A stretch of 60,057 nt of DNA, the filler included, from Dugesia japonica (taxonomy: Eukaryota), in NCBI GenBank assembly GCA_001938525.1. It is 6 parts of 6 records of this genome, joined end to end, with 100 filler letters (N's around TTAATTAATTAA, not from the genome) between each part and the next. Parts side by side here need not be neighbours in the genome. Positions count along the whole stretch, not along the records: positions 10,541 to 21,196 come from MQRL01591091.1; 5 more parts are not named here. One strand, given 5' to 3'. Below the pieces are notes generated by a model. That model saw nothing but the letters and a program-made list of their open reading frames with translations. It did not search any database and had not been told where the DNA came from. Position numbers and translations under genes: made by a program. Below, piece by piece: positions 6,861 to 48,099 of this stretch. Every line of letters begins with the position of its first letter. Positions within the stretch are counted from its first letter, which is position 1.

Positions 6861-7414
6861 TCATTTCAATGGGGAATCTTAAACTTAATTTAATTTAATT
6901 AAATTTGAATTAAATTAATTTATTTATGTAAGAGATGTGGCAGTCTTAATATTTTGCATGCAGAGTCTATATATTTTGCATAAGATAGGATGAATTGATA
7001 TTTTTTAAGATATTTCTCAAGATATTACAAGATATTGGACAGTCTTGATATTTTTAAAGATATTATGACAAGATATCGCGCAGTTTTGATATTTTTTAAG
7101 ATATTATTACAAGATATTTAATTCTCTTTCAATGGGGAAATATTTTAATTATAATTAAATTAAATTTAATTTAATTAAATTTGAATTAAATTAATTTATT
7201 TATATAAGAAATGTGGCAGTCCTATATTTTGCATAAGATGGGCAGACGTGATATTTCTTAAGATATTTTTAAGATATTACAAGATATTGGACAGTTTTAC
7301 AACTGCAATTATTGCGAGAATAATTGTTGGACATAACCATTGATCGTTTTATAGAATTCATTTAATATAAAAGCTTTGATCAAAATTTAAGTATTATTTA
7401 TTGATATTGGATAA

Positions 7415-7451
7415 CAATTCGATATTTCGACCTTGTCTTCGTCAGGAATTG
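7415..7451 (-). ncRNA. Minimal type I hammerhead ribozyme (Penelope/retrozyme type), intact
   Basis: Minus strand reads CAAUUC-CUGACGA-A-GAC-AAG-GUC-GAAA-UA-UC-GAAUUG: 6-bp stem I, complete core, 3-bp stem II, palindromic AUAU stem III, AUC cleavage triplet. Confidence 0.82.
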
Positions 7452-8478
7452 ACTTTTTTTTGACAGTCTTGATATTTTTAAGATATTATTACAAGATATT
7501 TTTTGAGATAATATTACAAGATATCTTGCAGTCTTGATATTTTTATTCAGTATATGTGTGTTGTAGCTGTAATGCTTTTGAATGCATTTATGAAAATATA
7601 TCTATTAAAAAACTTTAAAGATGAGTGACTTTGTGATAATTACATAATAAAAATATAACTATTAAAAATAACCAAAGAGGGAGTCCTTGTGATATTTGCA
7701 TAATAAAATATAACTTTTATTAAAATATTCATATAAAAAATGTTCAAAGTGGGGAGTTTTTGTGTCATTTATATGAATAAATATTCAAATTAAAACTTTT
7801 CATTACAAAATGATAAAAAACAGAACTTTTTTCAAAACATATTATTATTGGTAATTTTATATAAAAAAAATATATCATTACTGATGCGCTGCAATTTTTA
7901 ATAAAAAAATATTATAGATGTGTTGACAATAATAAAACGTCTGCCCTATATCTTGTAATGATATCTTAAAAATGTCAAGAATACCCATAACATGCGTAAA
8001 TATATTGTAATAACATCTTCAAAAATATCAAGACTGCACGATATCTTGAATTAATATCTTAAAAAATATTAAAAGTGTCCATAACATGCATAAATATCTT
8101 GTAATAATATCTTAAAAATATCAAAACTGCCCGATATCTTGTAATAATATCTTTAAAAATATCAAGTCTGTCCAATATCTTGTAATATCTTAAAAAAATA
8201 TCACGACTGCCCATCTTATGCAAAATATAGGACTGCCACATCTCTTACATAAATAAATTAATTTAATTCAAATTAAATTAAATTAAATTAAATTTAATTA
8301 AATTAAATTAAATTTAATTATAATTAAAAGATTTACCCCATTGAAAGAGAATTAAATATCTTGTGATAATATCTTAAAAAATATCAAGACTGCCCATAAC
8401 ATGCATAAATATCTTGTAATAATATCTTAAAAAATATCAAAACTGCCCAATATCTTGTCATAATATCTTTAAAAATAT

Positions 8479-9900
8479 AGTAGGGGGATAGTGGCGCACT
8501 AGCCCACCTTGATTTTTTAGCCCACTTTCATATTTTGCTGTTATCGGAGGGGATCCCCCTCCCCCTGGGGGGGGGCTCAGAAACACATTACGCTGGGATA
8601 TGTTTTTTTAACTATGATTTTTGTGTTGGTTTTTTTCCAAGATTTTTGGGATCAAAAAATTTTTGATCGGATCGGTTTTTTTTATCCTGGTGGTTTGTGT
8701 GTGTGTACTTTTAAATTTAAAAATTTTTGTGTGTTTGGGTTGTTAAGGTGGTTTTTAAAAAGTAGGTCAAGTTGAGTTTGTGTTTGTGGTTGTGTGTGTG
8801 TAAGTGAAAGAGTGAAAAAAAGGAGGAGGAGAAGTTGGAAATCTTGGAAATAATTTTTTTTTAGTTTTTATGATTTGGTTGATGTTGGACAAAAATATTG
8901 TCTATAAATTGTCTAAAGGACTTATGAGATTGGATGGATGGTTTGTCCTACAACTATGGTGGCGCACTAGCCCACTCGTATGAGTTATTGTGGGTCGTTT
9001 TTAGGAAGGCTGTAGGTTTGAATGTGTTTGTTGGAATTTGTTGGTTAATAGTTTGTTGGAGAGGTATTGTAATGGAAAAGATTTTGTATATCGAATGTGC
9101 TTTGATTTTTTAATTATAGGGCTACTATTTGATTGGTTGATATTTGTAGGTAGTATAAAAGTTTTAAAAAATATTTTGACTGGGAAGGATGGATTTTCAT
9201 ATTTTTCGAACGAAGAAGTAGGGATTCTTGTTATTTTTTAGTGGGAAATTCAAAAAACATTTGGCGAATAATTTAAATTTTTTTTTGGCGGGAAATTTAA
9301 AAAAATCTTTTGGCGGTTAATTCAAAAAAAAATATTTTTGGTGGAAAATTCAAAAATAATATTTTTTAATTTAAAATTTTTCATTTAAACCAGGGAAATC
9401 TTTTTAATATAAATAAATTTAATTAAACTAATTTATTTATGCATGGTATAGGCAGTCTCTATATTTATGCATGTTATGGGCAGTCTCTATATTTATGCAC
9501 GGTATAGGCAGTCTCTATATTTATGCATGGTATGGGCAGTCTTTATATTTATGCATGTTATGGGCAGTTTCTATATTTATGCATGGTACGGACAGTCTCT
9601 GTATTTATGCATGTTATGAGCAGTCTCTATATTTATGCATGGTATGGGCAGTCTCTATATTTATGCATGGTATGGGCAGTCTCTATATTTATGCATGTTA
9701 TGGGCAGTTTCTATATTTATGCATGGTATGGACAGTCTCTATATTTATGCGTGTTATGAGCAGTCTCTATATTTATGCATGGTATGGGCTGTCTCTATAT
9801 TTATGCATGTTATGGCAGTCTTGATATTTTTTAAGATATTATTACAAGAAATTTATGCTATGGGGAGTCTATATATTTATGCATGGTATGGCTAATCTTT
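8479..9900 (+). mobile_element. Second, diverged copy of the same TIR arm, abutting or inserted into the first element
   Basis: Starts AGTAGGGGGATAG. Colinear with 5831-7000 (CATTACGCT, TTGATCGGATC, GGTCAAGTTGAGTTTGTGT, GTTGGACAAAA). E2F-like array at ~9240-9350. Confidence 0.65.
9436..9900. repeat. 28-bp minisatellite (ATTTATGCATG[G/T]TATGGGCAGTCTCTAT), about 14-16 units
   Basis: Directly visible tandem array; related to the GCAGTCTTGATAT subterminal repeats at 6940-7550 and 7930-8478. Confidence 0.92.
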
Positions 9901-10214: not shown

Positions 10215-10730
10215 AGCAAATTCCCAACTAAAAAGCCTATAAAAAATATTACCACCTAAAAAGCCTGAAAAATATTACCGTTTAAAAAGCCCAAAAAATT
10301 TTCCNNNNNNNNNNNNNNNNNNNNNNNNNNNNNNACTTTGCCGTCTAATAAGCTTGAAAAATTTTCCCAACTAAATACACAGGAAAATATGTAGCCACTT
10401 AATCCTATTACGTAAATTTTCCCGGAGATGAAATTAATCTNNNNNNNNNNNNNNNNNNNNNNNNNNNNNNNNNNNNNNNNNNNNTTAATTAATTAANNNN
10501 NNNNNNNNNNNNNNNNNNNNNNNNNNNNNNNNNNNNNNNNCTTTTTAGGGTCCTAATTGCACCGATTGGTTTTCTTCTTGATTTTTCTTGTTGGAATATT
10601 TTCTGACGTCCGGGACCAAAGTTATCCGTATAAAACAGATTTTTATCTAATTTTCGTTTATTTTTTGTTTAAAATTATTTAATTTTTTCTGTATTAATTA
10701 ATTATTTTTTATTATTGTTTTCTGGTTGCT
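10215..10730 (-). repeat. Inverted partial copy of the promoter/leader module (copy 1), spanning the linker
   Basis: Reverse complement of 10600-10700 (AAAATCTGTTTTATACGGATAACTTTGGTCCCGGACGTCAGAA) aligns with ~13950-13995 (AAAATATGTTTTATGCAAATAACTTTGCTTCGGAACATCACAGAA). Reverse complement of 10360-10440 aligns with ~14400-14500. Confidence 0.6.
10441..10540. other. Assembly linker (44N + TTAATTAATTAA + 44N)
   Basis: The same 100-bp spacer, with stops in all six frames, occurs five times. Confidence 0.97.
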
Positions 10731-10924
10731 TCCTTCAAAATTATTAATAATTTTAATTGTTGATCAATAATGGGTTCATTTCTTCTACACCTTCTTCATT
10801 GCATGTTCATTTCTTTTTATTATCACCTTTAGATACTTTATCTCTTTTCTTGATTTATTTTCTACTTTAGTGGGTGTTCCACCCCAACAATATAACCAGA
10901 ACAATAATGTAAATTTTGTAAATA

Positions 10925-12120
10925 ATGGAATTCGATTTGGACTTATCAATAAACGTAGCCAGAATTATAATGAATGACCCAGACATTGAATTATTCGGTA
11001 TGAGCAAAGGTCGAGAAGAAATCAAGTAAACCCCAGTAACAAAAAACATAATGCACTACCGTAACATATTTGCAGCACCAGAAAATTTCATAAGTAAAAG
11101 GGTGTGTTACAGCACAATGAAAGTGTTTGATGAGAAGTACAGGGATGAAAATGCAAGAAAGCAATCGTTATTCCAACTACCTAAATATTTATACGGTCTC
11201 ATTGAAGCCCTAGCCAAATCAGGATTTTACTACGTCGGTACCCAAGAACGACCAGATAGAGTAAAATGTATATATTTTCAAGGCATCCTACACAAATGGG
11301 GCATGAATGAGCAACTCAATAAAGCACACAGGAAATGGTTTCCTACCAGTCCATTCTTGCTAAATGTAAATGTAAACAACAAATCCCAACTAACTAAAGG
11401 AAGAAAATCCAAAACCGAGAAAACTACCATGGAACCAAAGCGGATATACTGTAAAATCATAAAGAACTTAGCAGAAGTTGCCCTGCTAGAAGATCTGGAA
11501 TGGAATATCGAAGAAAGAGAAAAAACGTTCAAAGAATCACCAAATCTGAAAGAAAAGCCCTGGATGGATTATACTTTGTCCAACAAACCAGAAATAAAAT
11601 TATCAAATGCACCAATTGCAAACGAGAAACTCTATTACTGCAGGGAATAGAGAAATTACCAAAGAAAATATTTCATCAACCAAATGGTTCAAGATTAACA
11701 CCAATTTACGAGGAAGAAATACAAACCACAGCATGTAGAATCGAGTGGAATATGTCGAGTAACAGAATAGAAATGGCAATTGAATTACAGACTAACCGAC
11801 TGTCTAATATCTTAAAGTTAAATAGGATGAATATCAAACAGTTAATAAACCAAACGGTCACAGAAAAAGGGTCTGAACTAGTCACACCATATGAGTTATA
11901 TCAAAGATCACTCAAATCAGTAAAACCACAGGTAAAATATGAGCGGGAATGGGTGTTGCTAGATCATGATTGCGTTATCTGCCTTTTAGAAACCATCGAG
12001 GTCGTATTTCTGCCATGTGGACATTTTAAAACATGCTATAATTGTGCTATAAACTTAAATGAATGCCCTATGTGTCGAAAGTTAATTGAACGAAGAACAC
12101 TAGGAATAAAATTTCAATAA
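10925..12120 (+). pseudogene. Intronless IAP-like gene, BIR-(degenerate BIR)-RING, with one early stop and one frameshift
   Basis: BIR1: RKQSL..LP.....LAKSGFYYVG....DRVKCIYF..ILHKW.......AHRKWFPTSPF (two Cys lost). BIR2 remnant: REKTF..LDGLYFV..IKCTNC..H. Intact C3HC4 RING: CVICLLETIEVVFLPCGHFKTCYNCAINLNECPMCR. AATAAA at the stop. Confidence 0.88.
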
Positions 12121-12217
12121 TAAATAAAGTTAGATATGTAAATCATGTATGATTATATATACTTATATTTGTCAACATATTATTATAATAAAATAATTAC
12201 TCTCTCTGATTTTAGAA

Positions 12218-13371
12218 ATGAACGTGGAAAACCTAATAAACCATCTCCGCAATGAGATTCAATTCTTACAAATACAAACTCAAACCCTCACAACCGTACC
12301 AGATGTCCTAAAATGGAAATTGGAATCCAAAATCGATGCCTTTTCCAATTTACAATTGCAAAAATATATTAGCGAATTGGAGAGCCAAATAGAAAAAGCA
12401 CGTCACGAATTNGAAATAAAAAAGCGATCGTGCAAAACCCACCAAAAATACATAAAAAGCAATATCGACGCCAATAGAGCGAAAATAAATGCTATCAAAC
12501 AAGCCCAAAGCTGGAAGAGTAAATATGAGGAAGTCGAACATAAAATAAAGTTACTCGAGAATCAACTAATAGTCGAACAAGAAAATAACCACAGTTTTAG
12601 AATGGAACTGTTTAACACGCAGTTTGAAAAAAATTATCTGGTTACCGAAAATCAATTCCTAACCAGTCTAGCCAATCGAGAAAGGGTACAAGCTGATATC
12701 CATAAATTGTCCTTGGAATTCGAGAGCATAATGCAAGATTACCAGCAAAAGAATGAATTTTTACAGCAATACATCGAAGCCCTAGAGCAGGAAATCATTG
12801 AAATGCGAAACCTCTACCATGGAAAAGAAGATAAGATGAAACAAAAACAACAACAGTTAGTCGAGCAATTTGCCACCATTAAGGAACTACAGCAAGCGCA
12901 CACAGCTCGCAACCAATCTTTCATCCATTAGTACTACCGATCCTACCACACCTAAGGAATCTAATCATTCTTAATCCACCCAAATCAACACTAAACCCTG
13001 ACGCTCCAGAATGGCAACCAATAATCTCCAGTCTACTAAGACAATACACACCGTTAATAATCCAGGAACCCACGTCAGCTCCAGTTAAATCTAGAATACC
13101 AGAATCGATAAACAAAATAATTGATCAGGTCCCGCACATAATTTCAGCACCTACTCAACCCAGAAAGTCAGTACCTTTAGTGATACAAGAAACCCAAAGT
13201 AAACAACTCGGTTCTGCAACACCCAGCCGGATACACAGTAGAACCTCAGTGTGGAATCATAACCAATTTAAGAGAAACCTGTCCCAGTCAATCGTAACGG
13301 AAATATTACGAAAATTTGGTTCCGAAATACGAGCTAGTGACCTGGACGGTCTAGTAGAGGAAGTCGATTAG
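12218..13371 (+). pseudogene. Coiled-coil protein with Pro-rich tail, PAM2 motif and C-terminal EEVD (one frameshift between ~12883 and 12928)
   Basis: TTTTAG-AA-ATG start; 237 aa of heptad-rich sequence. The alternative frame is open 12883-13371, contains KSTLNPDAPEWQP and ends GLVEEVD*. AATAAA at 13392. Confidence 0.75.
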
Positions 13372-13599
13372 AACAAGTTGAGCGCGATGTAAATAAACTG
13401 TAATTAATCCATCGGACATCAATGAAGGGAATGAACTGTAAACTTTAATGTATATTGTATTTGAATGTATAACGTAGAAATTTTTATGTATGTGTTATGA
13501 GATAGCATGTAATGACCTTAAAATTCACCTTGCTCTGTCAGTTTTATTGGGGATAGAGGAGTTTCTGCAACGGGGACGAACTGTGACAAATTCCGGGAC

Positions 13600-14535
13600 G
13601 GAATTTAAACAAGTCGGAGAGCGATTTGTTGGGGTGGAACACCAGGACAAAGAGAACTAAGACCACGGGGGTCATCAAATACAAGTTATGGGAAAGGAAG
13701 TAAATTACGCAAAATGATTAAACGAAAAAGAAAAACCGGCACAACCATCGGATAGAATGATAAACCCAAAGTTTAAATAAACCATATAAAGGAAGCCGAT
13801 ATAATAAATTCGAACAATCCAATCGAAGTCATCCAATTAAGAAAATTATCGAGTTATTATTTGGATGAATGAGAAGATTAGTTAACAAACGATTTAATTA
13901 TCAAGAAAAAAATTAATTAATTTAATTTAAAAATAAAGAAAAATGATGTCAAAATATGTTTTATGCAAATAACTTTGCTTCGGAACATCACAGAACGACG
14001 GTGCAAGAAAATTCCAGAAGAGAAAAACAAGGGTCATTAAGAATTATCTGGAGAAAAAACTTACCATCATCCGGAAAGGTACTGTAGGGTTTCCAAGATC
14101 GAACCAATCAGATACCTAAAAATAAAAATAAAACAAAGAAGGAACCATCACATGGCCCTCTAAAAATACCTACCAATCAGAATTCCAAAACTCTACAAAA
14201 AATTCTAGAATAACAGCACCAACACCAATAAAATTCTAGAATTCTAAAACAAAAATACCTACCAATGAGAACGGTGCTGGGTTGTATCAAAAAATCATAT
14301 AAAAAGACCCCTGAACTTAACAGAAAAACACACAAAAATTTGAATATTGTAACTGCTACAGCAGCATTATATTATAAAGAAAAATTTTCATAGGAAACGT
14401 TAGTGAATTCTCATCGCAAATATAATTCCGGGAGAATATTCAATAATTTACGAAGCAGTCCAGAAAAGGAAATCGTAGCAAAATTTTAGTTGGAAAAGTC
14501 CCTTGCAGAAAATTCTATTAATTTTAATAGTAAGT
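13600..14535 (+). promoter_or_regulatory. Promoter/leader module (copy 2): CCAAT cluster, TATA box, candidate leader exon ending at a GTAAGT donor
   Basis: CCAAT at 14104, 14173, 14225 and 14262; TATAAAA at 14298; GTAAGT at 14530; TTGTTGGGGTGGAACACC at 13626 shared with 20238. Confidence 0.62.
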
Positions 14536-14736
14536 AATATGTTGGATGTTTTTATTTGTATTTAAATGTAATCTTAAATTAAATTATTAATGTCGAAATA
14601 ATATATGTTGGATATTTATGTTTTTTTATTTTTTGTTATTATCGTGATAAATTACCTCAAAAGAAAGTAATTAATTTATAAGTAGACATTATAGATCAGA
14701 TCCATGTTATGTCTCTTTTGATGTAGCAGAAACCAG

Positions 14737-14883
14737 ATGGGTGTTCATAAAGACGCCTGTCACAGCAAGAAAATGAATGATCAAAAAATACCCATGAAAA
14801 CGTACCAGTTCGCGAGTGCATATTCATTCATCGCTATAAATCAATTTCACCACTCTGTCATTAGGCGGCAAGTATTAAACTAA
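14737..14883 (+). CDS. 48-aa mini-ORF of the cassette, unknown function
   Basis: Pyrimidine tract + TAG/CAG immediately before the ATG; MGVHKDACHSKKMNDQKIPMKTYQF...RRQVLN*. Confidence 0.3.
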   Translation: MGVHKDACHSKKMNDQKIPMKTYQFASAYSFIAINQFHHSVIRRQVLN

Positions 14884-15149
14884 TTACATACAGACTCAGC
14901 AAAAAGAGAGCCCACTAACTAATTAGTTAGATGGTAAAATATCTCGGTTTCTCGTCGTGCCACTCACTGAAAACGCATCACATTGTTAAACACACTAAGA
15001 TGGGCGTGTAGGTAAACCAAGGTCGAATTCGATGTCGTTCCTAAGCGACTGTAAAATGCCACAATTTAAAAGATTATAATTAGCAATAAAATCATTGTAT
15101 CTGAATGAACAATTTTTAAATAACTTCTCATTATAGGAGTCTATTGGTT

Positions 15150-15321
15150 GCTTCATTGATATTATTATTATTATTATCACTATTGTTAGTATTATTATTA
15201 CTATTATCATTAACATCACGACTATTACTATTATTATTATTAGTATTTTATGGTTATTATCTTTGTGACGATCGTTATTATTATTAGTATTATTAATATA
15301 ATCATTAATATTATTAATATT

Positions 15322-15382
<61 letters not shown>

Positions 15383-15700
15383 NNNNNNNNNNNNNNNNNN
15401 NNNNNNNNNNNNNNNNNNNNNNNNNNNNNNNNNNNNNNNNNNNNNNNNNNNNNNTTATTATCGTTAATATCTTTATTATTATTCGCACCATTATATTCAC
15501 AATTATTATGATCATTTTAATTATCTGTCCAATTGCTAATGACCATATTATCGATATTATTATTAAAATACGTATCACTATTATTGGTAGTAGTAATCGA
15601 TGAGTTATTACGTTAAATATCAATGTCCAGCCGATTAATAATAGTCCGAAGTCATGCGGATCATCATATATATACTTTTTGTGAATCGGCATGTATTAAT
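15150..15700. repeat. (ATT)n microsatellite with degenerate flanks
   Basis: Pure ATT core at ~15325-15382 running into a gap; degenerate triplets on both sides. Confidence 0.92.
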
Positions 15701-16027
15701 AAAAGTAATAGTAATTCGGTATTGTTATCCTCCCTCTCAATTTTGGAGTGTTATCCACATTAAAATTATAGCCTGAATTTACTGTTACGGTTACATTAAC
15801 ATTCTGGTGGCGTGTAGCATCAGTAACGTTAACTGTGGTATGTTTTATCAGGATTCTGCACGTGGGTCAATTACCCATGAACAGCGATGAATTTACATAG
15901 GCCATTTCAGAGAGCAAGGGTAGAGACTCCCCACTAGTATTACCTGAAAGTAATGCCGATCCGGTTTTTCTTAAGGAACTAAATCATTAGAGATGTTGTT
16001 AAAGTATGCTCTTCTTACATTTAGCTT

Positions 16028-16210
16028 ATGCCCGTCAAATTGTGTCGGATCCTGCGAAAGATAGAACGACAGAGACGAGCTGTTCGTAGAAAACAGTTGA
16101 TAGCTCACATAATAACCCATGAAAAAATAGAGCATCCGGATGAAACGGACCTGTGCTGTTTTGCCGAGAAGTTCCCCATGGACGGGAAGGTAGATTTAGA
16201 CGAGGAGTAA
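16028..16210 (+). CDS. 60-aa mini-protein, family A (paralogue of 22891-23076)
   Basis: CATTTAG-CTT-ATG start; gapless 24/60 identity with the ORF at 22891 (RKQLIxH, PDExDLxCFxExFP, VDxD). Confidence 0.75.
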   Translation: MPVKLCRILRKIERQRRAVRRKQLIAHIITHEKIEHPDETDLCCFAEKFPMDGKVDLDEE

Positions 16211-16351
16211 TTACTTTCCTTAGTGTAACGGGTATCTGTGTGTTTAAATATACCAGGAAATGAAATTTTGTAGTTTTTATTTTTATAATTCGTCTATTAT
16301 GTCTTAATGTGGTGTAATCTAAACTTTACTAGCCCTATTCTGTTCTTAGGT

Positions 16352-16708
16352 ATGGACTCTATATGGATACGTGTCATCGATAGGTGAACCCGTCGACTAA
16401 CTCTGCGTCGATATCACAACCCGCATAATCAGGATGCCGGTATCTTAGTTTACGGGTCAAATTTACCACCGGTCGAATCAATCGTTGCCCGCATTAATGA
16501 TTTTGGAGAACGGCAGCGATACCAGGCGTGGACGGGCCTGGATCGCACTTTAGCAACTTCATTTTCATACCAACCTACCACTCTCGCCCCAGCTCCTGCG
16601 ATACAAGCGTTCATCGCTAATCTTCTCTGGAGAGTCCGAGAGCCGAATGGTGTAGCTGATGCGGAAAACACTGCCCTCAACGCCGACAATAATAATAATC
16701 CTTCTTAA
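16352..16708 (+). pseudogene. 118-codon mini-gene with one internal TGA (not in the ORF track)
   Basis: TTCTTAG-GT-ATG; MDSIWIRVIDR*TRRLTLRRYHNPHNQDAGILVYGSNLPPVESIVARINDFGERQRYQAW...NNNNPS*; GC-richer than flanks; AATAAA at 16730. Confidence 0.62.
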
Positions 16709-17022
16709 ACTGTTTGGTTATTTGTTAGAAATAAATAAGTGTTTCATTTGTGACTATTTCTAAATTTTCTTGTAAATCGGATTTCTAGTGATCGTGATTT
16801 AATTTTGACTTTAGTATTTTTTTGCGGTATTATTTGTAACGGGATTGGTCTTATCGATTTTATTTAATAATATTGCTAGTCAAGACCACCCAACTTTTCT
16901 AATAATAGTTAACATTGAGTAAAGTGTAACACCTTAAACATGTTTATATTTCAGTGCATTCGACTTTAAATAGGTTCCAGGTCCCGACTAAAAAATGACG
17001 AGAAGATAATGATGACAAGGAG

Positions 17023-17313
17023 ATGACTTGGGATCTTTATAAACTAGCTAAGAGGCGATGGGAAGCAGAGATCGCCGCGGCCGACGCTAAAGTAAAACGC
17101 TACAAGCGAAAATGTTTAACTTTTAAAGCCNAAATGGACGCCACCCAGAAACAAGAGAGGGTGTGGAAGTCCCAGGTTGAAACATTTACCAAGATGGTCC
17201 ATTCTTATCAGGAGCGGGAGAATAATTTGATGGAAAATATATTGAAGCTGAGAGCAGCGACACCTTTGGCCCCTCTCTTGATAGATAAGGGCACTCAGAC
17301 CAACCGCTCCTGA
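17023..17313 (+). CDS. 96-aa coiled-coil mini-protein ending in an LC8-binding motif (DKGTQT)
   Basis: ORF track; acceptor TTTCAG at 16954; AATAAA at 17342. Confidence 0.65.
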   Translation: MTWDLYKLAKRRWEAEIAAADAKVKRYKRKCLTFKAXMDATQKQERVWKSQVETFTKMVHSYQERENNLMENILKLRAATPLAPLLIDKGTQTNRS

Positions 17314-17416
17314 GTGTTATGTTTACTAATTATTTGAGTTTAATAAACTATTTAATTGTCTTTTATAATTATGAACTTGAGTTTTCGTCAGTTTACTTGT
17401 ATTTTGTTTTCATTCA

Positions 17417-17800
17417 GTGCCACGAATTAACTTTCCCAATAGTATCCGGAGATGCCATAGAATTATGCGCCGCTTACTAGTCGAACGACACCTAAAACGT
17501 AAGACAGATAGGGCACTTATGAAACATTTAGACCAACGGGATCAGCTGATTAAAAAATTAGATTTAATTATAAAAAAGCAAAATGACCTGGCGGTTCAAA
17601 CTTAAGCTTTGGAAACCGAAACCAAACAGCTGTTGCTACGGAAAATCGAGTTCATAAAGCAATACATTGCTGATCTGTCTCGTCGAATAGGCAACCCATC
17701 TGTAACCCAAGAGGATGACGATGAAGACATAGCAGCTTTCAACTTTGTGGTAACAGAGCCCAACCAGTGGCTAGATCCAGAGGCACTGGATTTACTTTAA
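17417..17800 (+). pseudogene. ~127-codon mini-gene (basic / coiled-coil / acidic tail) with one internal TAA
   Basis: ORFs 17417-17605 and 17609-17800 are in frame; acceptor TTCATTCAG at the start; AATAAA at 17812. Confidence 0.62.
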
Positions 17801-18486
17801 TATTTTCAAAAAATAAATTTATGAAATCAAATTTGTAACTCCTTTCTTTCGATAGTAACGATAGGGAAACCATTGAACCCAAATATAAAGGTTTATCGGT
17901 GCGTACCTTCCATTGAGAGTAAGGTCAACCACCATGAACTGAAAGCCTACCTCGGGGACGGTAGGATAAATTCTTGAAAGGGTTCCCCTGAGGGCTGTTT
18001 TTTCCCCAGTCACCTTTTCTTGTCACTCGACTCAGGTGGGACCCCAACAGTATTATACATTGGAGTGTTAACTTGAGTTTCTTCAGGTAATGATTATTTC
18101 ATTAAGTGAATTATCACATTTAATAAGCAACTTGGAAATGTGTCGAGAAAGAATCATGCTTAATAATATGGACTCACAACTAAGGTTTAATAATGATAAA
18201 AATAACTGATTCTAAAATCTCAAAAATGAATTAACGCGACTTAAATGTAATAAAGTAGCGAAATAAGAGTCAATATTTGAGAGTCCCTGAGTACAATAGA
18301 GTATGAAGCACTCACAGCAAAGTCTCAACTCCTTGCTCGTATAGATTAAAAATCATAAAATTCATAAACTTGGATTTTCATAATGTACAAAAGTAATGAC
18401 TGATTTATTATAAAAATACTATTAATTAAGTGTGAACATTTTATTAATAATTAAATAAATAACTTCAATATTGTAAAAATTTAGAA

Positions 18487-18930
18487 ATGGTTAAAAATAT
18501 CTCGTTAACAGAAACTGTGAAATCATTGAACGGGTGGAACTTCACTGCACCGCCACCATATAATAGACCAGTACTCTACAATTCCTGGAGTGATGTGATG
18601 ATATAGACCCTTGGTGGATGAGGCAAGATAAGTTGCAATTACAAAATCTAAAGACCAGGAACAAGAAATCGCAGAAATGAAAATTTAGTACAAAACCAAA
18701 AAAAGCAGTAAAAACGAAATCAAGCGTTAGCAGATTTGTTTAAGAGTTCTATTAAAGTTTCATAGCATCTTATTAGGCCACCACAACGTACAGAAAAAGG
18801 AACCTTCATTAATCGTGTAGTACAAGAATAAGTAAAGGTTGCGGAGCGCATAGAGGCTCGCATTGAGCAGGTTATGCCGACCTTGATACCATATTTAATA
18901 GAAGATTGCAAAATAATTGTCGAAATCTAG
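18487..18930 (+). pseudogene. Degraded mini-gene containing PPPY
   Basis: TTTAG-AA-ATG; MVKNISLTETVKSLNGWNFTAPPPYNRPVLYNSW... then frameshifts; AATAAA at 18946. Confidence 0.5.
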
Positions 18931-19124
18931 TTTTATTCAAGTGTAAATAAAATTATTATAGTTTAAATGCGTTTTGTGTTAACGTACGATAATTTTAAAG
19001 TTACGAACTAGTAAATAACTATCATAATTATTAATGAAAGTTGACAAATTCTATTTTCTTTTATTATTATAACAATATGTTTTTAAGCTTTCCACATAAA
19101 CATTGTTTAATTTACAAAATTTCA

Positions 19125-19472
19125 ATGAAAATCACCAAGCTATCTCAAGAGAAGTTGTTAACAGAACAATGAAACAGTACGATTGAGTTGAAAAAGATGC
19201 GCAAAGAGATTAATGAATTAAGAAATTCGGTCAGTATCGCTAGATAGAAGATATCAATTCTGTGAGAAAGATTAAGCGTGAGTCGCCAGAAGGAACTCAC
19301 TCTAATCACAAACAACAGGATGCTCGTTGAGATAATCAAACCGTACGCCTACAAGGAGGCCAAACATGAGAACATTATGAAAGGAATATAATGGAAAAAC
19401 GAATAAAGATTCAGACTGTGAGAATACCAAGGAGACTATATTTGGCTCTCAATATATCAAATGTGTAAATAA
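19125..19472 (+). pseudogene. Degraded 115-codon coiled-coil mini-gene
   Basis: One continuous frame MKITKLSQEKLLTEQ*NSTIELKKMRKEINELRNSV... with several stops explicable as single C>T changes; AATAAA overlaps the stop. Confidence 0.45.
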
Positions 19473-20229
19473 ATTTAAAGTCATAACGACCGTATTTTCT
19501 TAGTTTTTAAAATAAATAAATTAATAAATATGAGCAGGAACACCAGTTAACTTTCTTCACAAACGGGATACAGTATAGTCCTGCATAGACCACGGTTTAG
19601 ACTATCGACTCACAAAGTGTCGAAAAGTTTCTNCTGGCTTCGAGGTATCTACTCCTAGAAGAGATAAATCACTGCAAAAAATAAACCAGGCAAAGAAAAA
19701 GAAAACATCAAAATCTTGAAGCCCTACAAAACTTTTGTTTGATAATTGAATTAATGAATTATTGAATATTTTTGTTGGAAGATGTCGGGGTAGAACTTAT
19801 TTACAGATAAAAAGTAAAATTAAACAGAAAAATTAAACAAAGTAGACAAAAGATTGAAAAGAAGAAAGAAAGAAACAAATACATCATTAAAATAGAAGGA
19901 AACGCCACAAGAACAGAGGATAATGAGAATTTATAAGCAAATGAATTATTTAGCGGAAAATTTATTAGGTATAAAAAATAAATAAATTATTATCATATGG
20001 AAATTTACATTCAGAATAAGTTACAAATTAATTAAGAGTAAAGGAACCCGAAATTGAAGAATATAATTTGTTACAAATTAATTATGAGAAAAATGATTTA
20101 ATAACTTAAGAAATCATCCATATACAACAGATTACCAAGCGGAAAATAATTACATTAATAACAAAAATTATTAAACATCAAATCAAATATTTGCCGAATC
20201 AGTCAGAACTAAAATATATAATTATTTTC

Positions 20230-21196
20230 AAACAGAATTGTTGGGGTGAAACACCGGATTAATGCAAAGAGAATTGCGTAAGTAAGCACGAAATTCGAAA
20301 AATCTACATGAGAAAGGAAAATGAAGAAATCAGACCCAAGAAGGGCATAATCTAGTTGGAGAGAAGAATGACGAAAGCCAAAATGAGACTAGAAGACTTA
20401 AACTCGTGAAAAAACTAGAACTACAACAGGAGATAACGACGAAATAAAAAAAACCAACAAAGTAAAGAAGCGGTACTCCAAACAACGAAAATAATAAACG
20501 ATGGCCAAGGAACTGATTCATTAATTGAAAAGGAAATAATGAAAAGGAAAATCAAGATTGGTAACCAGAACCAACGAAATAACCAAAAATCACAGCACGA
20601 AACAATTCAGAAGTAAATAAACCGAAGAAGAAAATGTAATAGAAGCTGTGACAGGACGACAAAAAATCTAATGATTAACCATCAATTCATTAGGCAAAAT
20701 CAAGAAAATCACACCGAATCATACTAGAAGAAAGANNNNNNNNNNNNNNNNNNNNNNNNNNNNNNNNNNNNNNNNNNNNNNNNNNNNNNNNNNNNNNNNN
20801 NNNNNNNNNNNNNNNNNNNNNNNNNNNNNNNNNNNNNNNNNNNNNNNNNNNNNNNNNNNNNNNNNNNNNNNNNNNNNNNNNNNNNNNNNNNNNTTTTAAA
20901 TAAAAAATTAAATTTTCTACAAAAAACTAAGAAAATTAGGACTTCTAGTGGTGCCAAAATTATCAATTTAGAAATTTCTGGTCGAGAAAAATCTGGAGAA
21001 CTCAAAAATCAAACTTAGAAAACCATGGCAAGGAAGAGAAAAAAGTTATAAGGGTTTGAAGGTTGACCAATAGTTTCGAAGTCCAAAAATAACCGCCAAT
21101 GAAAAGAAAGCATGTGACCGTTTGGCCAATAAAAGTGTCGAAAATTTATATTCACCAATGGAATAAACGGGGGTGTAGAAAAAACCGGTATAAATA
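20230..21196 (+). promoter_or_regulatory. Promoter module (copy 3): four CCAAT boxes at 29-30 bp spacing plus TATA
   Basis: CCAAT at 21067, 21096, 21126 and 21155; TATAAATA at 21189; TTGTTGGGGTGAAACACC at 20238 (17/18 identical to 13626). Confidence 0.7.
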
Positions 21197-21296: not shown

Positions 21297-21708
21297 CTTG
21301 ATTTATTCATTATGATATTTAAACATAAATAAAAAAGAAAAAATTAAGTAAAAATCACAAATTATCATGTTAAGTTATTATAAAATCCATTGAACTTAAA
21401 TATTGTCCACCGATAATTATCGTCTACTGAGAAATAAGTAGTTGTCTTTGAAATTAGGCATGCCAANNNNNNNNNNNNNNNNNNNNNNNNNNNNNNNNNN
21501 NNNNNNNNNNNNNNNNNNNNNNNNNNNNNNNNNNNNNNNNNNNNNNNNNNNNNNNNNNNNNNNNNNNNNNNNNNNNNNNNNNNNNNNNNNNNNNNNNNNN
21601 NNNNNNNNNNNNNNNNNNNNNNNNNNNNNNNNNNNNNNNNNNNNNNNNNNNNNNNNNNNNNNNNNNNNNNNNNNNNNNNNNNNNNNNNNNNNNNNNNNNN
21701 NNNNNNNN

Positions 21709-22700
21709 GTTATTATTGTTATTCAAACTATGATAATTAATCTCCGTGAATAATAGTATTTCTTCATAATTAATGTAATTGTTGCCATCATTATATTTAA
21801 TTAGTATCATTACTATAATTATATTTATTCCCATTATTATTGCGTTTACTGCTAATAATATATTCCAGTCAATACTTCATTTATGACTATTATTAGTTTC
21901 AGATAAATGTTACCCTTAATTCTACAATCTTTTCATTCTAGGCGATCCATACACCCGATGATTATTATTATTACAAAGGTGAATATTAGAGTCATGATTA
22001 TATTTATGTCTACTAGTGATACCAGTTGAATAGTAATTCCCTACTATTAGTGCCAAGATAGTTATTATTGAAACGATCTTGATATTATGTTCAGTCTATA
22101 ATTAATATTATTTTGAGTATTGGGAATTTAGAATCGATATTATCGACATCATTAACATAATTAATATGATTATAACCAGTAATATTATTATTATTCTTCT
22201 CATTTCTGCGGGTAACCTCATTCTATTATTATTATTTTTACTTATTATTAGTAGGATTCTTATTATTGTTATCACGCCTATTATTATTACTACGTTATTA
22301 TGATTATTCCTATCATGATAATCATTGCAATTGTTATTGATACTGTTTTGTTAGCATTATTATTATTATTACTATTATTATTTTTACTACCAATAGTAAT
22401 AACATTATTATTATTAATCTCGTTACTGTTATAGTATGATTATCATTATTATAATTATGTTTATTATTAATTTCAAGATTACTACCACGGNNNNNNNNNN
22501 NNNNNNNGCTAGTATTCTTATGAATTCAATATTTAATTTTTGTATTATCACCATCAATATTACTATTATTATTGCACATATTATCATATTTATTACAATT
22601 ATTATTATATGTATGAGCATTATGATTATCCCCTATTTAGTTTCTTTCCTTATTAGTATTCGTATTGTTGCTATTAGGACTCCCGTTATTCACTAATGTC
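21709..22700. repeat. Long degenerate (ATT)n tract
   Basis: ATT/TTA/TAT triplet periodicity with many substitutions. Confidence 0.88.
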
Positions 22701-22890
22701 GTGATCTCTATTATGGACGTCGTCTTCACATTTATCTACTCTTAAAAGTACTTAAAATATAAATATTATCAATAACGTACGAAGAGTGTTAAACATAAAA
22801 TAATCGATATCGCTCCCGTTAAGTATGTAACATAAACTACCGGACAATTTTTCGAGTTTAATGGGTTCTGATAATTTTTTCTTTAGGAAA

Positions 22891-23076
22891 ATGTCGAGGA
22901 GTTTAAAAGACACATTAAATTTCATTCGGCCAGAACAGCAACGAACCAGCCGGAAACAGCTAATCGGACATCTCCTCTTTCTGAGTATTATCCCTTCTCC
23001 CGATGAGTTGGATTTACAGTGTTTTGTCGAGATGTTTCCCTTGTCTACCTATGTGGATATCGATCGGAAACTCTAA
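22891..23076 (+). CDS. 61-aa mini-protein, family A (paralogue of 16028-16210)
   Basis: TTTTTCTTTAG-GAAA-ATG start; MSRSLKDTLNFIRPEQQRTSRKQLIGH...PDELDLQCFVEMFP...; AATAAA at 23105. Confidence 0.75.
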   Translation: MSRSLKDTLNFIRPEQQRTSRKQLIGHLLFLSIIPSPDELDLQCFVEMFPLSTYVDIDRKL

Positions 23077-23309: not shown

Positions 23310-26010
23310 AAATTCAAAACTACTCAAATAGTTCCTAACAAGCTGTTCAATCAAAGAGCAAAACACACTTTCCACAAGATCAAAGGTGAGCTCACTGAGT
23401 CTAAATACTTACTTCACAGCAGATATATGAAAGCCCTTTGAAAGTATTTCATGAAATTCTTGGATCTACAATTCCAGTCTCAACACCAACTAAAGAGAAT
23501 ATTATCAATTATTTCACTCAGATTCTGCCAGAAAACCTAAATCTAGATAAGTTTAAATTTCTTGATATTTCACTCTATCAACGAAATAAAATTAAATAAA
23601 ATCAAAACTGCTTTCAAAAGCACTTAGAAATCTTCATCCGGGATGAATAGAGTCACTTACTCCGATTGGCTTAAAATTGATCCCAATAACATATTTCTAC
23701 AGGCTCTCTTTAGCAGAATTCTACAGATTAAATATATACTTGATCAATAGAAAACGTTTTATACTAATCTCATCTTGAAACTGGTTAAAGAAAAGGAATC
23801 TCATCAAGTCTCATCTTGAAAATTTATAGCAATTTTGAATACCTCATACCGAATTTTTACAATTGTTATAAAAAACAGAATTCTCAGTTGGATTTCAGTA
23901 GGAAACTCACTCTCACCAACTCTAAATGTGACTTATTTATCAGATGGATGCTCACAACACAATGCTACAATACAATTAATTAGAGAAAAAGCTGAGCGCG
24001 AGAAATGGAATCTTAACCTTACTTGACTTGATCTGGCAGACACCTTTGATAGTACCCCTCAGAAAATACTCTGATTCATGCTTAAACATATTGGATTACA
24101 TCCTGAGACCGTTACTCTTTTTAAGGAGTTATACAAAGACATTTATTGTTCTTACAAATGTCTAGACATAAAAACAAGCGATATCAAAATCATTAAAGGA
24201 GTCAAACAAGGATGTTCTATGTCTATGACGCTTTTTAGCCTGATCATTGATTTCATTATTATAGTAACCTCAAAAGCATTTCCTCTAACTCTTAATGGGT
24301 ACAATGTTACCATTTTAGTTTATTCAGACGATCTTGAACTTATCTCCAATAATTACAATCAGACGAATCATATGATAAACAAAATTGTAAGCTTCACTGA
24401 TACAAGCCGTCTAAAGTTCATACCAAGCAAATGTGGATTCTTCCAACTTAAAACCCAAATAAAATATCAAAATTTACAATAAAGTGATTCAAAAAATTAA
24501 TGATGAAATTCTATACAATTACTTGGGAGTATCATTAGGAGAAGCTAAGAAAAACAACCTTAAAGACATAATCAACAATGCAATAGAAGACTTTGGAAAA
24601 ATCACAGAAAGCAGTCTTCATCCGTCATTAAAAGTCCAAACATAAAAATGTTTATTCATTCAAGATTAATCTATGCTATGAGGAACCGAGACATTTTCTA
24701 TATGAAACTGAACAACCCTCATCACAAAAAGTTTGATGGCAGTACAAGACAATCAGATTATCAAAAGAATTTTTAAGAACATCAATCAAGCTCCAAACAG
24801 CAGTGACAATAATGCCTTTCCTTTCGTTCTATCTAAACGTGGAGGATTAGATTTGTTGCCTTCAATCGATGAGTACTATATTCAAAGTATAGTAAATGCC
24901 TTCCGGATCCTCAATTCTCAAAAGAATTGTTTCAAAGTGTTAACAGCTAGGGAACTTGAGCACAGATTCAGAAACAATAGCACATATTCGATCCAAAAGA
25001 CCTTGATGCATAACAACACTATTCCATCTTAAGATAAAACTAATATTACTGCATCTTTGTGTACCAGAGTAAGGACGTTAATAAAAAGACTTTACGAAAC
25101 TCATAAACTCAAACTGCTCTTCTTTATTGAAGAAAATGAAATAGAGCTGAAAATCACTTGGCTGGATGATTAGAACTTTTTTCTCAATATACTGATCAAA
25201 AACAGCTCAAAATCTTAGTTGTGCAATGTCCTTCATACTAAAATTGAAATGACATATTTCCAAAAATGGAAAAGCCTTTCCACACAAGGTCTTCTAACAA
25301 CATGTTTAGACTCATCAGACTATGCTCAAAATTTTATGAAAAACTTAAACCTTTCTGAAAACGATTACCCATTCATTATTCGAGTAAGAAACAATCTTTT
25401 GAGAACTAACTACAATCCTAACAAACTGAAAAGCAACATACCAATTCATTGCAAAGAATCTGGTACTGAAGCTATAAACTTAAATACACATATTTAACCA
25501 CTGCTCAGCGAGGAGGAATAAACAGTACAATAAACACAATCATGTTAAGGAAAAGATTGTAGCTCAACTTAGAAAATGGAATTTTGATGTAGAAATTGAT
25601 TCATGTTCACAAAGCTTTGCAAAAGCTAGAGAAGATAATAGGAAAAAATATAAGAGCATCAAATTCGAAATTAGCTCAAAGTTCTACAAAAAGGTTACAC
25701 TTAATAATCTTGTCATTGGAACATTAAACTCAAGGAACGCCTTCAATCAAAGGGCTCTCAAACATATTGGTCTAACCTCAAATGAAATAAAGAAAATCTC
25801 GTAAATATCAATCAAAAGAGTAATCAAAGTGAGCTATCATATTTACTTAAATCATATAATCAATGAGGCTAAATTTCCTTCAATTCAAAACTAAATTCTG
25901 TTTAGACTCAAATGTCCAAGAAATTTATCAAATTGAGTTCTTTCTAAATAACCAAATATAATAAAATAAAAATCTATGATCTCGGATTTATTCGAATCAT
26001 TCAAGACTTA
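23310..26010 (+). mobile_element. Degraded RLE-type non-LTR retrotransposon (NeSL/R5/R4-like), 5'-truncated
   Basis: RT motifs DLADTFDSTP, GVKQGCSMSMTLF, VYSDDL, KFIPSKC, YNYLGV; RGGLDL thumb; C-terminal HCK..E...HI..C..HN zinc remnant; KY and LVIGTL of an RLE domain. Confidence 0.85.
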
Positions 26011-28194: not shown

Positions 28195-30312
28195 TCCATC
28201 TCTCTTTAAAAGCTCTTAACCACGTTACCATTTTCAAATTTAATGTGATAACCCCTATAATGTCTCTTTTTAATTATTTTTCCCGGGCCTTCATACCTAT
28301 CTTTGTCTTTATTAGTAGCAATATTATTACCAAAATGTTGTCTCCAATTTTAAAATGTATTTTCATAATTCCATGCATGTTATGACTAATTTCATCTTGA
28401 TCAATGAGATTTTCATTCTATTTTCATGTTTCTCTTCTACATTTTCATGAATATTCTTTTCTTGTGAAATTTTATTTCCAAAAACAATTTCCGCTGGGCT
28501 CAATTTTAATGTACTTCGATATGTATAATTTGTCATAAATTTTACTTCAGGGAGTATATCTGTCCAATTTTTATTTGTTTTATTTTGTAATGTTGTATGA
28601 ATTGCATCTCTTAAAGTCCGAAATTGTATTTCGATTTGTCCATTACTAGAATGATATACGGACTTGAGAATTTTAACTCTGTCTATGTTTTTCTGTCAAT
28701 TCTCTAATTTAATTCGATTCAAATGATCTTCTTCTATCACAAGTAATAATTTTAGGGCCCCAAATTTCAAAATCCACTGGTTTTTTAATATAGTTTTTTC
28801 GGTTTCATCAATTACTCATATTAATGAAATATACTTGCTAAATTGATCTGTAATAGCTAATATATATTTTTTACTATTTCTAGCGGTTTTAAACGGTCCA
28901 CAGAAATCAATAGGTATAATTTCATAATTTATCTGTTGGCAACATTTTACTTATGTCTTCTTTTGTTTTTGAAGTTACAGTTTTCCTTTTTTGACATTTT
29001 TTACAGCTTTGTACAGTCTCATATATTATATAAGTTTTATTTTCCATATCAAATTGTGAATTGTATAAACAATATTTTCAATCAATTTAAATTTATAATT
29101 TGTTTCAAAGCTTAAGTTCTCTTTAAAAACATCGAATTTTTTCACTCTTTTTGCCATTTACAACCATCATTTTGTAAAATTAATGCCAATATTTTAGCTT
29201 TTAATTTTTCAGATTTTGGTTCTTTATATATAGTCTGGCATTGGACACACGTTTCACAATTCGTTCTTCAGAGAGCATCTGCATTCAAATGTTCTTCACA
29301 TTTTCTGTATTTCATTTAAATATCCAAAATGATAGGATGGTTGATCCAAGTCTGAAATTGTGGTGTTATTGGTCTTTTAGCCTTCAGCTTTTAGTGATCA
29401 GTTCTTAATCGAAATCTCTGTCCATACAAACAATATTTAAAATGTTCTGTGAAATAAACTATCGCAAAACGTTCTTTTCTGGTAATGCAAAAATAGCCCA
29501 GCTTGTGTTTACTCATGGCTTTGGATCCGTAAGAAATAACTTTTTCTTCTCCATCGTTATCAGTTTGACTTAAAATTGCACCAATTACATCAAAGCTGGC
29601 ATCAGTATCCATTATAAATGCTTTAGAAAAATTTGGAAATGCTAAAACTGGAGCTTCCATTAGTTCAGCTTTCAAATTTTTAAAAGAAATTTTGCACTCA
29701 CTATTGTTTTTTCTTTTATAGGTAGTTTGTGACCCGTGAATGATTTAAATTCTTCTAATAGTCTAGTATTAAAATTTTCTTTTTGTTGTTTATTAAGAAA
29801 TATCTATTTAATTAATGTATATGCTGCTCCCGTATCTATTAATGAAGGTATGTTATATTCATTTACTGATATGATCATAGTAGATCTGGGAGTATCCCCA
29901 TTTATTACATATACCTCATGTGATCTTGGAGATGCGGTATATTTTATCAGTTTTTCGTTTTCAAAATTTGATTTTAATTCGTTGAGTTTATCAGTTTCTA
30001 GTAGATAGGGCTTATTTTCATTATTTCTTGATTCTATGTTCTCATCTCCATTTGATATGTTAATTGTGTATGTTTGATTTTGAGTTTGTCTTTTTAATTT
30101 TCTGATTTTATCATGATATGTTTGCATAATGAAGTGTTTTGCAATAAATGGACATATGCATGCTGCTATTTTTTACTGGAGTACCGGATACTGAGTGTAA
30201 TTGTTTTAATGATATTAGTTGATGGCATGCTAGTTTTAATTAAATAGGTACATGATATAGTAATAGGAAAAATTAGCACCAAGTGCATGTGCATTACCCA
30301 GAAATTTGACAA
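28195..30312 (-). mobile_element. Ty3/gypsy internal region: protease, (RT deleted), RNase H, integrase
   Basis: SLIDTGAAYTLI; APVLAFPNFSKAFIMDTDAS..IGAILSQ...FRLRTDH; IDFCGPF, ITDQFSKY, YHSSNGQIE, YEGPG. Confidence 0.9.
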
Positions 30313-31700: not shown

Positions 31701-32644
31701 AGTTGCTGGAGTATAAATTAAAATCATCATGCAAGTTGATTAGAAATCACAATGAGAAATTAAAAACCGTAAAAGGAAAAAATGATGTTCGTATGAATAA
31801 ACTTTACAAGACCTAGCGGAGTCCAAGGAGCAAGAAGCTCTTAAAATACGATGTGAAGAGCTAAAAANNNNNNNNNNNNNNNNNNNNNNNNNNNNNNNNN
31901 NNNNNNNNNNNNNNNNNNNNNNNNNNNNNNNNNNNNNNNNNNNNNNNNNNNNNNNNNNNNNNNNNNNNNNNNNNNNNNNNNNNNNNNNNNNNNNNNNNTA
32001 GCAATTTTTACGCAGAATTCACAAAATACACTCGACTTTCTTCCAAAAAATAGAAACAGTAACTAAAATTTTTATTTAATTAAATAAAATAATTAATAAA
32101 ATTAATAAAATTGACTTGATAAATATGAAATAATTATATATAATTTCAGTAAATCAAAAAGTTTCGATCAAAGAGTTTTTTAAAATTTATTGAAACTTTA
32201 AAATTCATTAGTTAAGTCTAACGATTATACCAGCAATAATTGTAATAGTAAAATTATACATCGATATAATATTTATTTATAAGTTTTCTTATTGGTTTTT
32301 GGTACAACGTCGATAGTTATATAAAGAGAAAAATTATGACTATCGTTTTAAAGTGTAACGGAAATTTGGTTAGTAATTAAAAATTTTCCAAAATAATATA
32401 AATAAATTCAACACAGTTGTTTTGATGGTCTTTTGAAATATAGCTTGTAAGAAATACTCAACTTTCAGTATACTATAATTTGAAAACATATTTTTAATTT
32501 TCTAAATTACAAAATACTTTTGTATGTATAAAAATATCAAATAAATAATAATTATCACAAATATATTTATAAGTGATAAGCATAATAATTGAAAAATTTG
32601 TTTATATAATTTGTTTAACTTCATTTTTTCAAATTCAACTANAA

Positions 32645-47364: not shown

Positions 47365-48060
47365 GAAGAAGCTATCGAAAAACATTTTGAGAATAATATT
47401 ATCCGGAAATGCAACTCTTCATGGAATACTCTATTGATTTGTGCTTGGGAAATGGAAAAGAAAGAATATGTTTTGATTTTAGAATGCAGTAACAAAAAGA
47501 CAAGTTTTTCCGATGCAAAAATTGATGAAATGCTGGACCAATTGAATGGAGCAAAATATTTCAGTTCAATAGATTTGGGAAATGCGTAGTATCAGGTAGA
47601 GCTCGAAGAGGAATCTCAAGAAAAATGAGGTTTTCAAAGAAGCACGGACAATATTGTTTTAATGGAATACCTTTTGGAATCGCAGCGGCACTGAGAACAT
47701 TTCAGGAGATGATGACAAAAGTGATAGGCAGAATTAAAGGAGCTATGGTATATCTAGATGATATTATGATAATNNNNNNNNNNNNNNNNNNNNNNNNNNN
47801 NNNNNNNNNNNNNNNNNNNNNNNNNNNNNNNNNNNNNNNNNNNNNNNNNNNNNNNNNNNNNNNNNNNNNNNNNNNNNNNNNNNNNNNNNNNNNNTTGGAA
47901 CTGATCCGTCTAAAATAGAAGCAATAAGAACTTTTGGAAAACCCAACTGCGTAAAGAAGTTACGAAGTTTCTTAGGAATTTATAATTACTACAGGAAATT
48001 TAAAGAAAATGATGCAAGTAAATCCAAGATCTTAGAACAGCTGTGTAGCGGACCAAGCAA
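47365..48060 (+). mobile_element. Ty3/gypsy reverse transcriptase fragment
   Basis: IIRKCNSSWN, IDEMLDQLNGAKYFSSIDL, IPFGIAAA..TFQ, VYLDDI, LRSFLGIYNYYRKF. Confidence 0.9.
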
Positions 48061-48099
48061 CAAAAGTTAGAAATATTTATTATTTTATAGTCAAAGCAA

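Follow-up and report, generated by a model that had tools for sequence, protein, structure and literature searches.

The open reading frame (ORF) considered here lies in a window of 60,057 nucleotides (the whole stretch of DNA that was analysed), which is AT-rich (18-40% GC per 2 kb), eukaryotic in content, and carries EF1-gamma and G-beta exons together with LINE, Gypsy, and Polinton-type fragments. Artificial spacers (44 N + 12 nt + 44 N) at 10485, 21241, 30357, 39955, and 49350 join six unrelated scaffolds of ~9-11 kb, so the true context of the ORF is limited to 10541-21196. On another scaffold, a 229-aa piece of EF1-gamma (best identity 53%) fell as the sister of an eight-row clade, made up of 6 named parasitic flatworms and 2 unnamed rows (SH-aLRT 95, long branch of 0.89), in a quick tree search of one gene and 53 rows, with no planarian row, for which 52 of the 120 listed proteins were used. 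By this placement, the host is probably a flatworm of free-living habit. In the EF1-gamma gene (32573-34291, plus strand), the first intron is very short and the N-terminal domain seems ~15 residues short of those of the relatives compared, and a 141-nt exact duplication within the gene (33268/33638) looks like an assembly artefact. Other scaffolds hold LINE-type RT fragments, Gypsy fragments of RNase H/RT, and what by eye looks like a mariner remnant (24075-25800, plus; 28363-30172, minus; 47350-48070, plus; 281-1154, plus), as well as a decayed Polinton/adintovirus-type integrase, PLA2-like domain, and double-jelly-roll capsid recognised by weak Pfam matches at 53821-55470 (minus). A 28-bp tandem array (9350-9898), an array of ~304-bp units (36053-37243), and nested inverted repeats (6879-8490) complete the inventory. 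The features of the scaffold that carries the ORF are as follows.

10541..21196, no strand: scaffold with the ORF (10.6 kb), artificial spacers at both ends (spacer positions)
10871..12120, plus: inhibitor-of-apoptosis (IAP) gene, decayed, acceptor AG/TG at 10871 (Pfam; acceptor; AATAAA at end)
12216..13371, plus: coiled-coil gene, decayed, frameshifted tail with a PAM2-like motif (pattern search)
16025..16210, plus: 60-aa gene, with a 40% identical paralogue at 22891-23076 on the next scaffold (sequence comparison)
16350..16708, plus: short gene with one internal stop, preceded by an acceptor and followed by AATAAA (acceptor/poly(A) scan)
16940..16954, plus: probable 3' splice acceptor, T-rich tract leading to TTTCAG, phase 1 to the following frame (sequence; contig depth)
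16955..17313, plus: probable terminal coding exon of ~119 codons, with basic patch, acidic run, coiled coil, and LC8-type tail (frame; depth profile)
16996..16998, plus: in-frame stop of the 17023-17313 copy, missing from most copies (aligned contigs)
17023..17313, plus: ORF of the original prediction, 96 aa (translation)
17050..17259, plus: coiled coil, residues 10-79, ~10 heptads in one register (heptad count; AlphaFold2)
17281..17304, plus: LC8-type motif IDKGTQTN, positions -5 to +2 (sequence; rules of PMC3078936 and PMC6607443)
17342..17347, plus: AATAAA poly(A) signal, 29 nt past the stop (sequence)
17418..17800, plus: short coiled-coil gene next downstream, acceptor AG/TG (acceptor scan; contigs)
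18485..18930, plus: decayed short gene with a PPxY motif (pattern search)
19125..19391, plus: decayed short coiled-coil-like gene (ORF scan)

Translation of the window reproduced both the ORF at 17023-17313 (plus strand), whose C-terminal end reads PLLIDKGTQTNRS before the stop, and the DKGTQT motif at 17284-17301 (plus strand), the anchor of which is T91-Q92-T93 (positions -1 to +1). The original prediction had regarded this ORF as a mini-protein, a description that is probably wrong. The frame is open upstream of the ATG at 17023 as far as the acceptor AG at 16953-16954, save for one stop at 16996-16998, and at that stop run X1 has another letter in 2699 of 2905 units of summed depth (45 contigs), run X8 in 177 of 220 (19 contigs). 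In all likelihood the ORF is the 3' portion of an interrupted, spliced gene of ~119 codons or more with its last exon beginning at 16955, and the true start is probably not the ATG at 17023; the interruption in this gene copy is a stop not found in most of its relatives. The acceptor at 16940-16954, with 9 of 15 pyrimidines when counted by eye, falls below a strict acceptor filter that requires 10, and contig depth in run X1 rises ~27-fold there relative to the AT-rich stretch upstream. The first base of codon 37 (17131-17133, plus strand) is an ambiguous N, so a further stop is possible even in the 17023-17313 copy, which looks dead as a functional gene. Its neighbours are broken as well: the IAP gene is frameshifted, and the downstream gene at 17418-17800 has an internal stop (17603-17605) that is missing in all 2471 of 2471 units of depth in run X1.

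Within the ORF, a single heptad register spans residues 10-76 with hydrophobic residues at 15 of 20 a/d positions (next-best register, 43%), and the single-sequence AlphaFold2 model has helices at 3-35 and 39-79 followed by a non-helical tail at 80-96 (pLDDT ~63). The coiled coil that had been proposed to precede the motif is accordingly present, with the predicted helix reaching residue 79, and the motif sits in a predicted disordered tail 8 residues past its end. The predicted homodimer score was 0.11 (mark, 0.32). Pfam returned sub-threshold coiled-coil matches only for the 96-aa protein, and no BH3, capsid, or RNA-binding domain was detected in it.

The scaffold as a whole is built of GC-rich blocks that alternate with AT-rich spacers, and about nine plus-strand units, drawn by eye, begin at 10871, 12216, 13542, 16025, 16350, 16955, 17418, 18485, and 19125. 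The IAP gene encodes a BIR domain (PF00653, E 8e-10; ORF 11051-11650) and a RING domain (E 5e-14; ORF 11500-12120) in different frames, while LNPDAPEWQP at 12991-13026 (plus) and PPPY at 18550-18561 (plus) are, by their pattern, what we take to be PAM2-like and PPxY motifs, respectively. Close to the start of the coiled-coil gene at 12216-13371 there is also IQTQT (12278), a weaker anchor of LC8 type with no K/R at -3. The 60-aa gene belongs to one of two diverged copies of a single layout (14995-16210 and 21700-23076), each consisting of a 60-aa plus-strand gene (40% identity between the two) preceded by a long tract rich in (ATT)n; the tracts read Asn-rich on the minus strand.

Several regularities suggest that these units share a mode of expression. 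An ATG or TG follows 6 of the 14 acceptor-like sites of the plus strand and none of the 15 of the minus strand (Fisher p 0.006), a contrast for which the acceptor criteria were chosen after the sites had been seen and in which the acceptor at 16940-16954 is not among the passing sites. AATAAA lies at most 30 nt from the ends of 7 of 8 units (p 0.0002 against a background of 0.22 in AT-rich DNA; units drawn by eye), a count unaffected by inaccuracies of 1-3 nt in two of the end coordinates, and 7 of 8 acceptors are in phase 1, again as judged by eye. Since three of the acceptors read AG/TG, an upstream exon ending in A would complete a start codon, a splice-formed start that would parallel gypsy env; our literature search found no paper on the subject. 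Phase-1 acceptors arranged in tandem would be alternative terminal exons behind one shared 5' exon, and since the flatworm spliced leader ends in AUG and would be out of frame with phase-1 exons, we prefer cis-splicing to trans-splicing. The shared 5' exon was not found, nor were any splice-type joints in the aligned contigs and reads of four runs. Judged from these sequence signals, the units of the battery are most likely terminal exons joined by alternative splicing to a shared 5' exon. Searches of 12 frames of 10541-15000 and 15600-20735 found no gag, PR, RT, RH, IN, env, or capsid; no pPolB, integrase, double-jelly-roll capsid, or terminal inverted repeats were found on the scaffold (10541-21196), and no long direct repeat was found within it, the 10.6 kb being part of a possible 30 kb. 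The original prediction spoke of a further host-motif mimic in a cassette, and the cassette is real, given the IAP gene, the other host-type motifs, and the high-copy repeat; it is the status of mini-protein that most likely has to be given up. The probably spliced battery is a more unusual part of the finding than the motif.

No relatives were found in the protein databases searched. The 96-aa protein had 0 homologues among 5.8 billion proteins (1 candidate of 52-168 aa), 0 matches among 1.84 billion representative proteins, and 0 homologues among 1 candidate in viral contigs, and Foldseek against a viral structure library gave 0 of 12 matches at E 0.001. Residues 38-96 reached at best 0.90 to unnamed clusters of the Atlas, with a recognition of 1768, below the mark of 2300, and the 60-aa ORF had no usable match there. 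None of 593 candidates among longer proteins matched the BIR ORF, none of 11 and none of 24 candidates in viral contigs matched the coiled-coil ORF and the RING ORF, respectively, and an Rfam search gave 0 matches. A metagenome match (L001, in 1 of 86 stretches) was set aside as an 18-residue chance likeness within a bacterial gene.

DNA-level relatives are, by contrast, plentiful in sequencing runs. Part of a 1151-base stretch that includes the ORF is present in 17 of 24 listed runs, with at most 0.27 of its words in any of them, and no RNA run was among the matches listed in the run index as containing the stretch; contigs were aligned to these 1151 bases at 80% likeness from 4 of the 24 runs (X1, X8, X20, and X23). 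Run X1 yielded 1334 contigs, of which 59, 186, 415, and 674 were at 99% or more, 95-99%, 90-95%, and under 90% likeness, and run X8, which bears a second organism label, yielded 352 (11, 37, 102, and 202 in the same classes); neither contig numbers nor summed contig depth is a copy count. The ORF belongs to a very abundant repeat family, which is probably a mobile element. Mean summed depth in run X1 was 157 over 16778-16933, 4252 over 16934-17011, 7885 over the coil, 1464 over the linker, 2419 over the tail and motif, 493 over the downstream spacer, and 3855 over the next gene, and the profile of run X8 has the same shape (Spearman 0.945). Depth over the exon follows the coding model, and there is coding-type conservation in both runs, a contrast to which AT-rich spacers may add because they also lose alignability faster for non-selective reasons. 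From linker to tail and motif, depth recovers from 1464 to 2419 in run X1 and from 71 to 105 in run X8. Tail depth is ~31% (X1) and ~25% (X8) of coil depth, which means that most of the family depth is tail-less or less than 80% alike in the tail.

Conservation of the TQT core can be described in part from the positions where these contigs differ from the window. None of the 40 difference rows listed, out of 298 (apparently rows where most of a run differs), falls in 17260-17317, where ~0.6 would be expected in the 18 motif bases (40 per 1151 bases) and where minority changes are possible among the other 258 rows. With no listed difference there, the motif is not private to the 17023-17313 copy, and the copies that align appear for the most part to share DKGTQT. 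Conservation of TQT, on which the original prediction depends, is seen in part: the aligning copies have no majority change in it, and roughly two-thirds of family depth and all RNA reads miss the tail. Across 16955-17313, there are eight listed sites where much of the DNA depth differs, and by eye six of these are codon-altering and two silent; six of eight is what would be expected of a copy drifting from its family. By eye, the basic patch and acidic run stay in frame in the loose ends of RNA reads and of diverged DNA contigs. A joint at 17063-17279 in one X1 contig, considered as a conserved island at the motif, was set aside, its 22-letter short side not being placed.

Expression was observed, weakly and in two RNA runs, for diverged relatives, and the 17023-17313 copy was not seen to be expressed. 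The searched quarter or so of each of these poly(A) RNA runs gave 26 (X20) and 2 (X23) aligned reads, all 28 of which are less than 90% alike and nearly all of which lie on 17010-17130, with 0 of 28 over the tail or motif. At the listed sites, three differences separate the reads from the window copy, two of them silent and one basic-to-basic, and the loose ends of the reads pass codon 37 as sense (both by eye).

Across all six frames of the window, [KR]xTQT occurs twice and the narrower D[KR]xTQT once, as DKGTQT. When the ORF was shuffled 30,000 times, the rates per ORF were 0.0066 for [KR]xTQT and 0.0006 for [DS][KR]xTQT, which corresponds to 0.05 and 0.006 expected over the 63 ATG-ORFs of at least 50 aa in the window. 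Two studies provide the rules against which the peptide can be read: a natural consensus of [D/S]-K-X-[T/V/I]-Q-[T/V]-[D/E], with a small residue at -2, a gain from valine at -5, and coiled coils frequent near the motif (PMC3078936), and a polar residue at -4, a large one at -3, no bulky one at -2, no internal proline, and a preference for P/D/E at +2 (PMC6607443). IDKGTQTN follows these rules at six of its eight positions: favoured residues fill -4 (D), -3 (K), -2 (G), and the TQT core, the nearest proline is at -8, and the I at -5 is valine-like. The N at +2 is outside the preferred P/D/E, being neutral and non-hydrophobic, and the rule is one of preference only. That KxTQT is a class of LC8 ligand holds up, as Table 1 of PMC6607443 lists Bim DKSTQT and a human SLC9A2 peptide with the core EKGTQTS as binders, and rabies P binds LC8 (PMC8615749). 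In PMC6607443, however, LC8 bound only 7 of 19 matrix-predicted motifs. The setting claimed for such ligands, a disordered tail beside a coiled coil, is likewise the one described in PMC3078936 and PMC6607443. By its sequence, the tail peptide is a plausible textbook LC8 ligand in a textbook setting, and binding is predicted; the original prediction gives DKSTQT as the hexamer of rabies P as well as of Bim. Summed over all the readings discussed below, LC8 binding of some kind seems to us fairly probable.

The reading that we favour, tentatively and at a little under an even chance, is that the functional protein is a coiled-coil dimer whose two tails are taken up by an LC8 dimer, which stabilises an adaptor whose basic N-terminus may target the nucleus. 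The ORF would then be a dead copy of an accessory gene on a high-copy mobile element, either a transposon or a provirus. The working protein would have ~120 aa or more, comprising an N-terminal basic patch, an acidic run, a 70-residue coiled coil, and the disordered tail, and its two coiled-coil chains would offer two IDKGTQT strands to both grooves of the host LC8 (DYNLL) dimer. LC8 may in this way zip and stiffen the protein dimer, as with rabies P or Panoramix, and the LC8-bound dimer could serve the element as a stable adaptor in some function, possibly a nuclear one. We infer each component of this scheme, namely, the splicing, the shared exon, the dimerisation, the LC8 binding, the host phylum, and any function.

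An accessory gene that is real but whose motif is incidental, fixed by descent in one subfamily while the coil works without LC8, is on the whole unlikely, and it accounts for the tail being the worst-aligning coding part after the linker and for the expressed relatives not aligning over it. False positives predominate among short motifs (PMC5746249), and an event with an expectation of 0.006-0.05 will often be met when many windows are scanned. However, the flanks at -4, -3, and -2 fit in addition to the anchor, the motif is placed in a disordered tail directly past a coiled coil, depth recovers from the linker to the tail and motif in both X1 and X8, and the adjoining genes bear other host-type motifs. 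A chance open frame in non-coding repeat DNA would explain why 0 homologues turned up among 5.8 billion and 1.84 billion proteins, as well as the ambiguous codon and the Atlas recognition of 1768 against 2300, but such a frame would hardly lie in a GC-rich block flanked by AT-rich spacers, keep 67 residues in one heptad register, have coding-shaped conservation in two runs and RNA-read differences that are silent or conservative, and be bounded by acceptor and poly(A) signals like those of the adjacent IAP gene, so that we regard it as very improbable.

Two other readings accept LC8 binding and differ in its consequence. In one, a small, high-avidity dimer would act as a sink or decoy that titrates LC8 from host clients and weakens small-RNA-guided silencing or shifts BH3-type apoptosis control, beside the IAP of the element. 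LC8 is an abundant hub protein, and the RNA of the family is very scarce (26 + 2 reads from roughly one quarter of each run). Panoramix is not known outside flies, and our literature search found no LC8-dependent silencing step in flatworms. LC8 is required for piRNA-guided silencing in flies (PMC7861614), and a sink is decidedly improbable as a description of this protein. In the other, the motif would couple particles or RNPs of the element to the dynein motor for travel to the centrosome and nucleus, by analogy with foamy virus Gag, which binds LC8 via a coiled coil and depends on it for trafficking to the centrosome (PMC3705263); an env-like region is also described in Burro elements (PMC6431247). 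LC8 is, though, mainly a dimerisation engine (PMC3078936), no capsid or RNA-binding domain was detected in the protein, and no gag or env was found in the frames searched on the scaffold, which leaves a dynein link a slender prospect.

Among known systems, the adaptor scheme most resembles the viral LC8 ligands (rabies P, Ebola VP35, and HPIV3 P, PMC8615749; foamy virus Gag, PMC3705263), which are likewise parasite-encoded and combine an oligomerising helical region with a TQT-type anchor in a disordered stretch. The protein described here differs in having no sequence or fold homology to them, in being far smaller, and in being the product of a probably spliced accessory gene of a high-copy repeat; as far as seen, it is neither a polymerase cofactor nor a capsid. 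Bim (DKSTQT), SLC9A2 (EKGTQTS, PMC6607443), and Panoramix (PMC7861614) have a near-identical core, and a coiled coil or dimer nearby is usual (PMC3078936), whereas our ORF is not a host gene and neither BH3 nor any other domain was detected. Burro (GYPSM1) elements, giant Gypsy-like LTR elements of planarians, share with it a probable flatworm host, very many copies, BIR and coiled-coil cargo, accessory ORFs, and tandem repeats, and in one species they include decayed copies with stops and frameshifts; the adjacent BIR and RING match their cargo of apoptosis and ubiquitin type (PMC6431247), and planarian Burro abundance and cargo are also treated in PMC8532177. In Burro, however, the BIR lies inside a 4,900-aa polyprotein, whereas the BIR and RING here form a stand-alone IAP gene with its own acceptor and AATAAA, and the frames searched on the 10.6-kb scaffold gave no matches to gag, PR, RT, RH, IN, or env. 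With a separate IAP gene and no linked retroelement core, we do not assign the element to Burro; the main text of the review names no battery of spliced short genes and no LC8 motif (PMC6431247).

Complex retroviruses, foamy-like ERVs (mentioned in PMC6431247), and adenovirus late units place several short genes as alternative 3' exons after a common leader; the present arrangement differs from them in that about nine units lie in tandem, each has its own poly(A) signal, and the shared exon was not found. LC8 mimicry is well known in viruses. Among the papers listed by our literature search, none showed an LC8 ligand encoded by a transposon or described spliced accessory genes in the giant elements of planarians, the original Burro description and the supplements of the review, which may cover these ORFs, lying outside it. 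The widest reading of the locus, a giant flatworm element or provirus with about nine alternatively spliced host-motif mimics (LC8, PABP/PAM2, WW/PPxY, and IAP), in which the LC8 ligand would be a counter-measure that uses or titrates a hub needed in stem-cell small-RNA silencing and apoptosis control, seems improbable to us. The effects of Burro on host apoptosis and ubiquitination are described as untested in the review (PMC6431247). Here, a 14-residue natural peptide and an animal amenable to knock-down would make one link between element and host open to direct test, and even if the motif should be incidental, the result would still usefully annotate a repeat family missing from protein databases.
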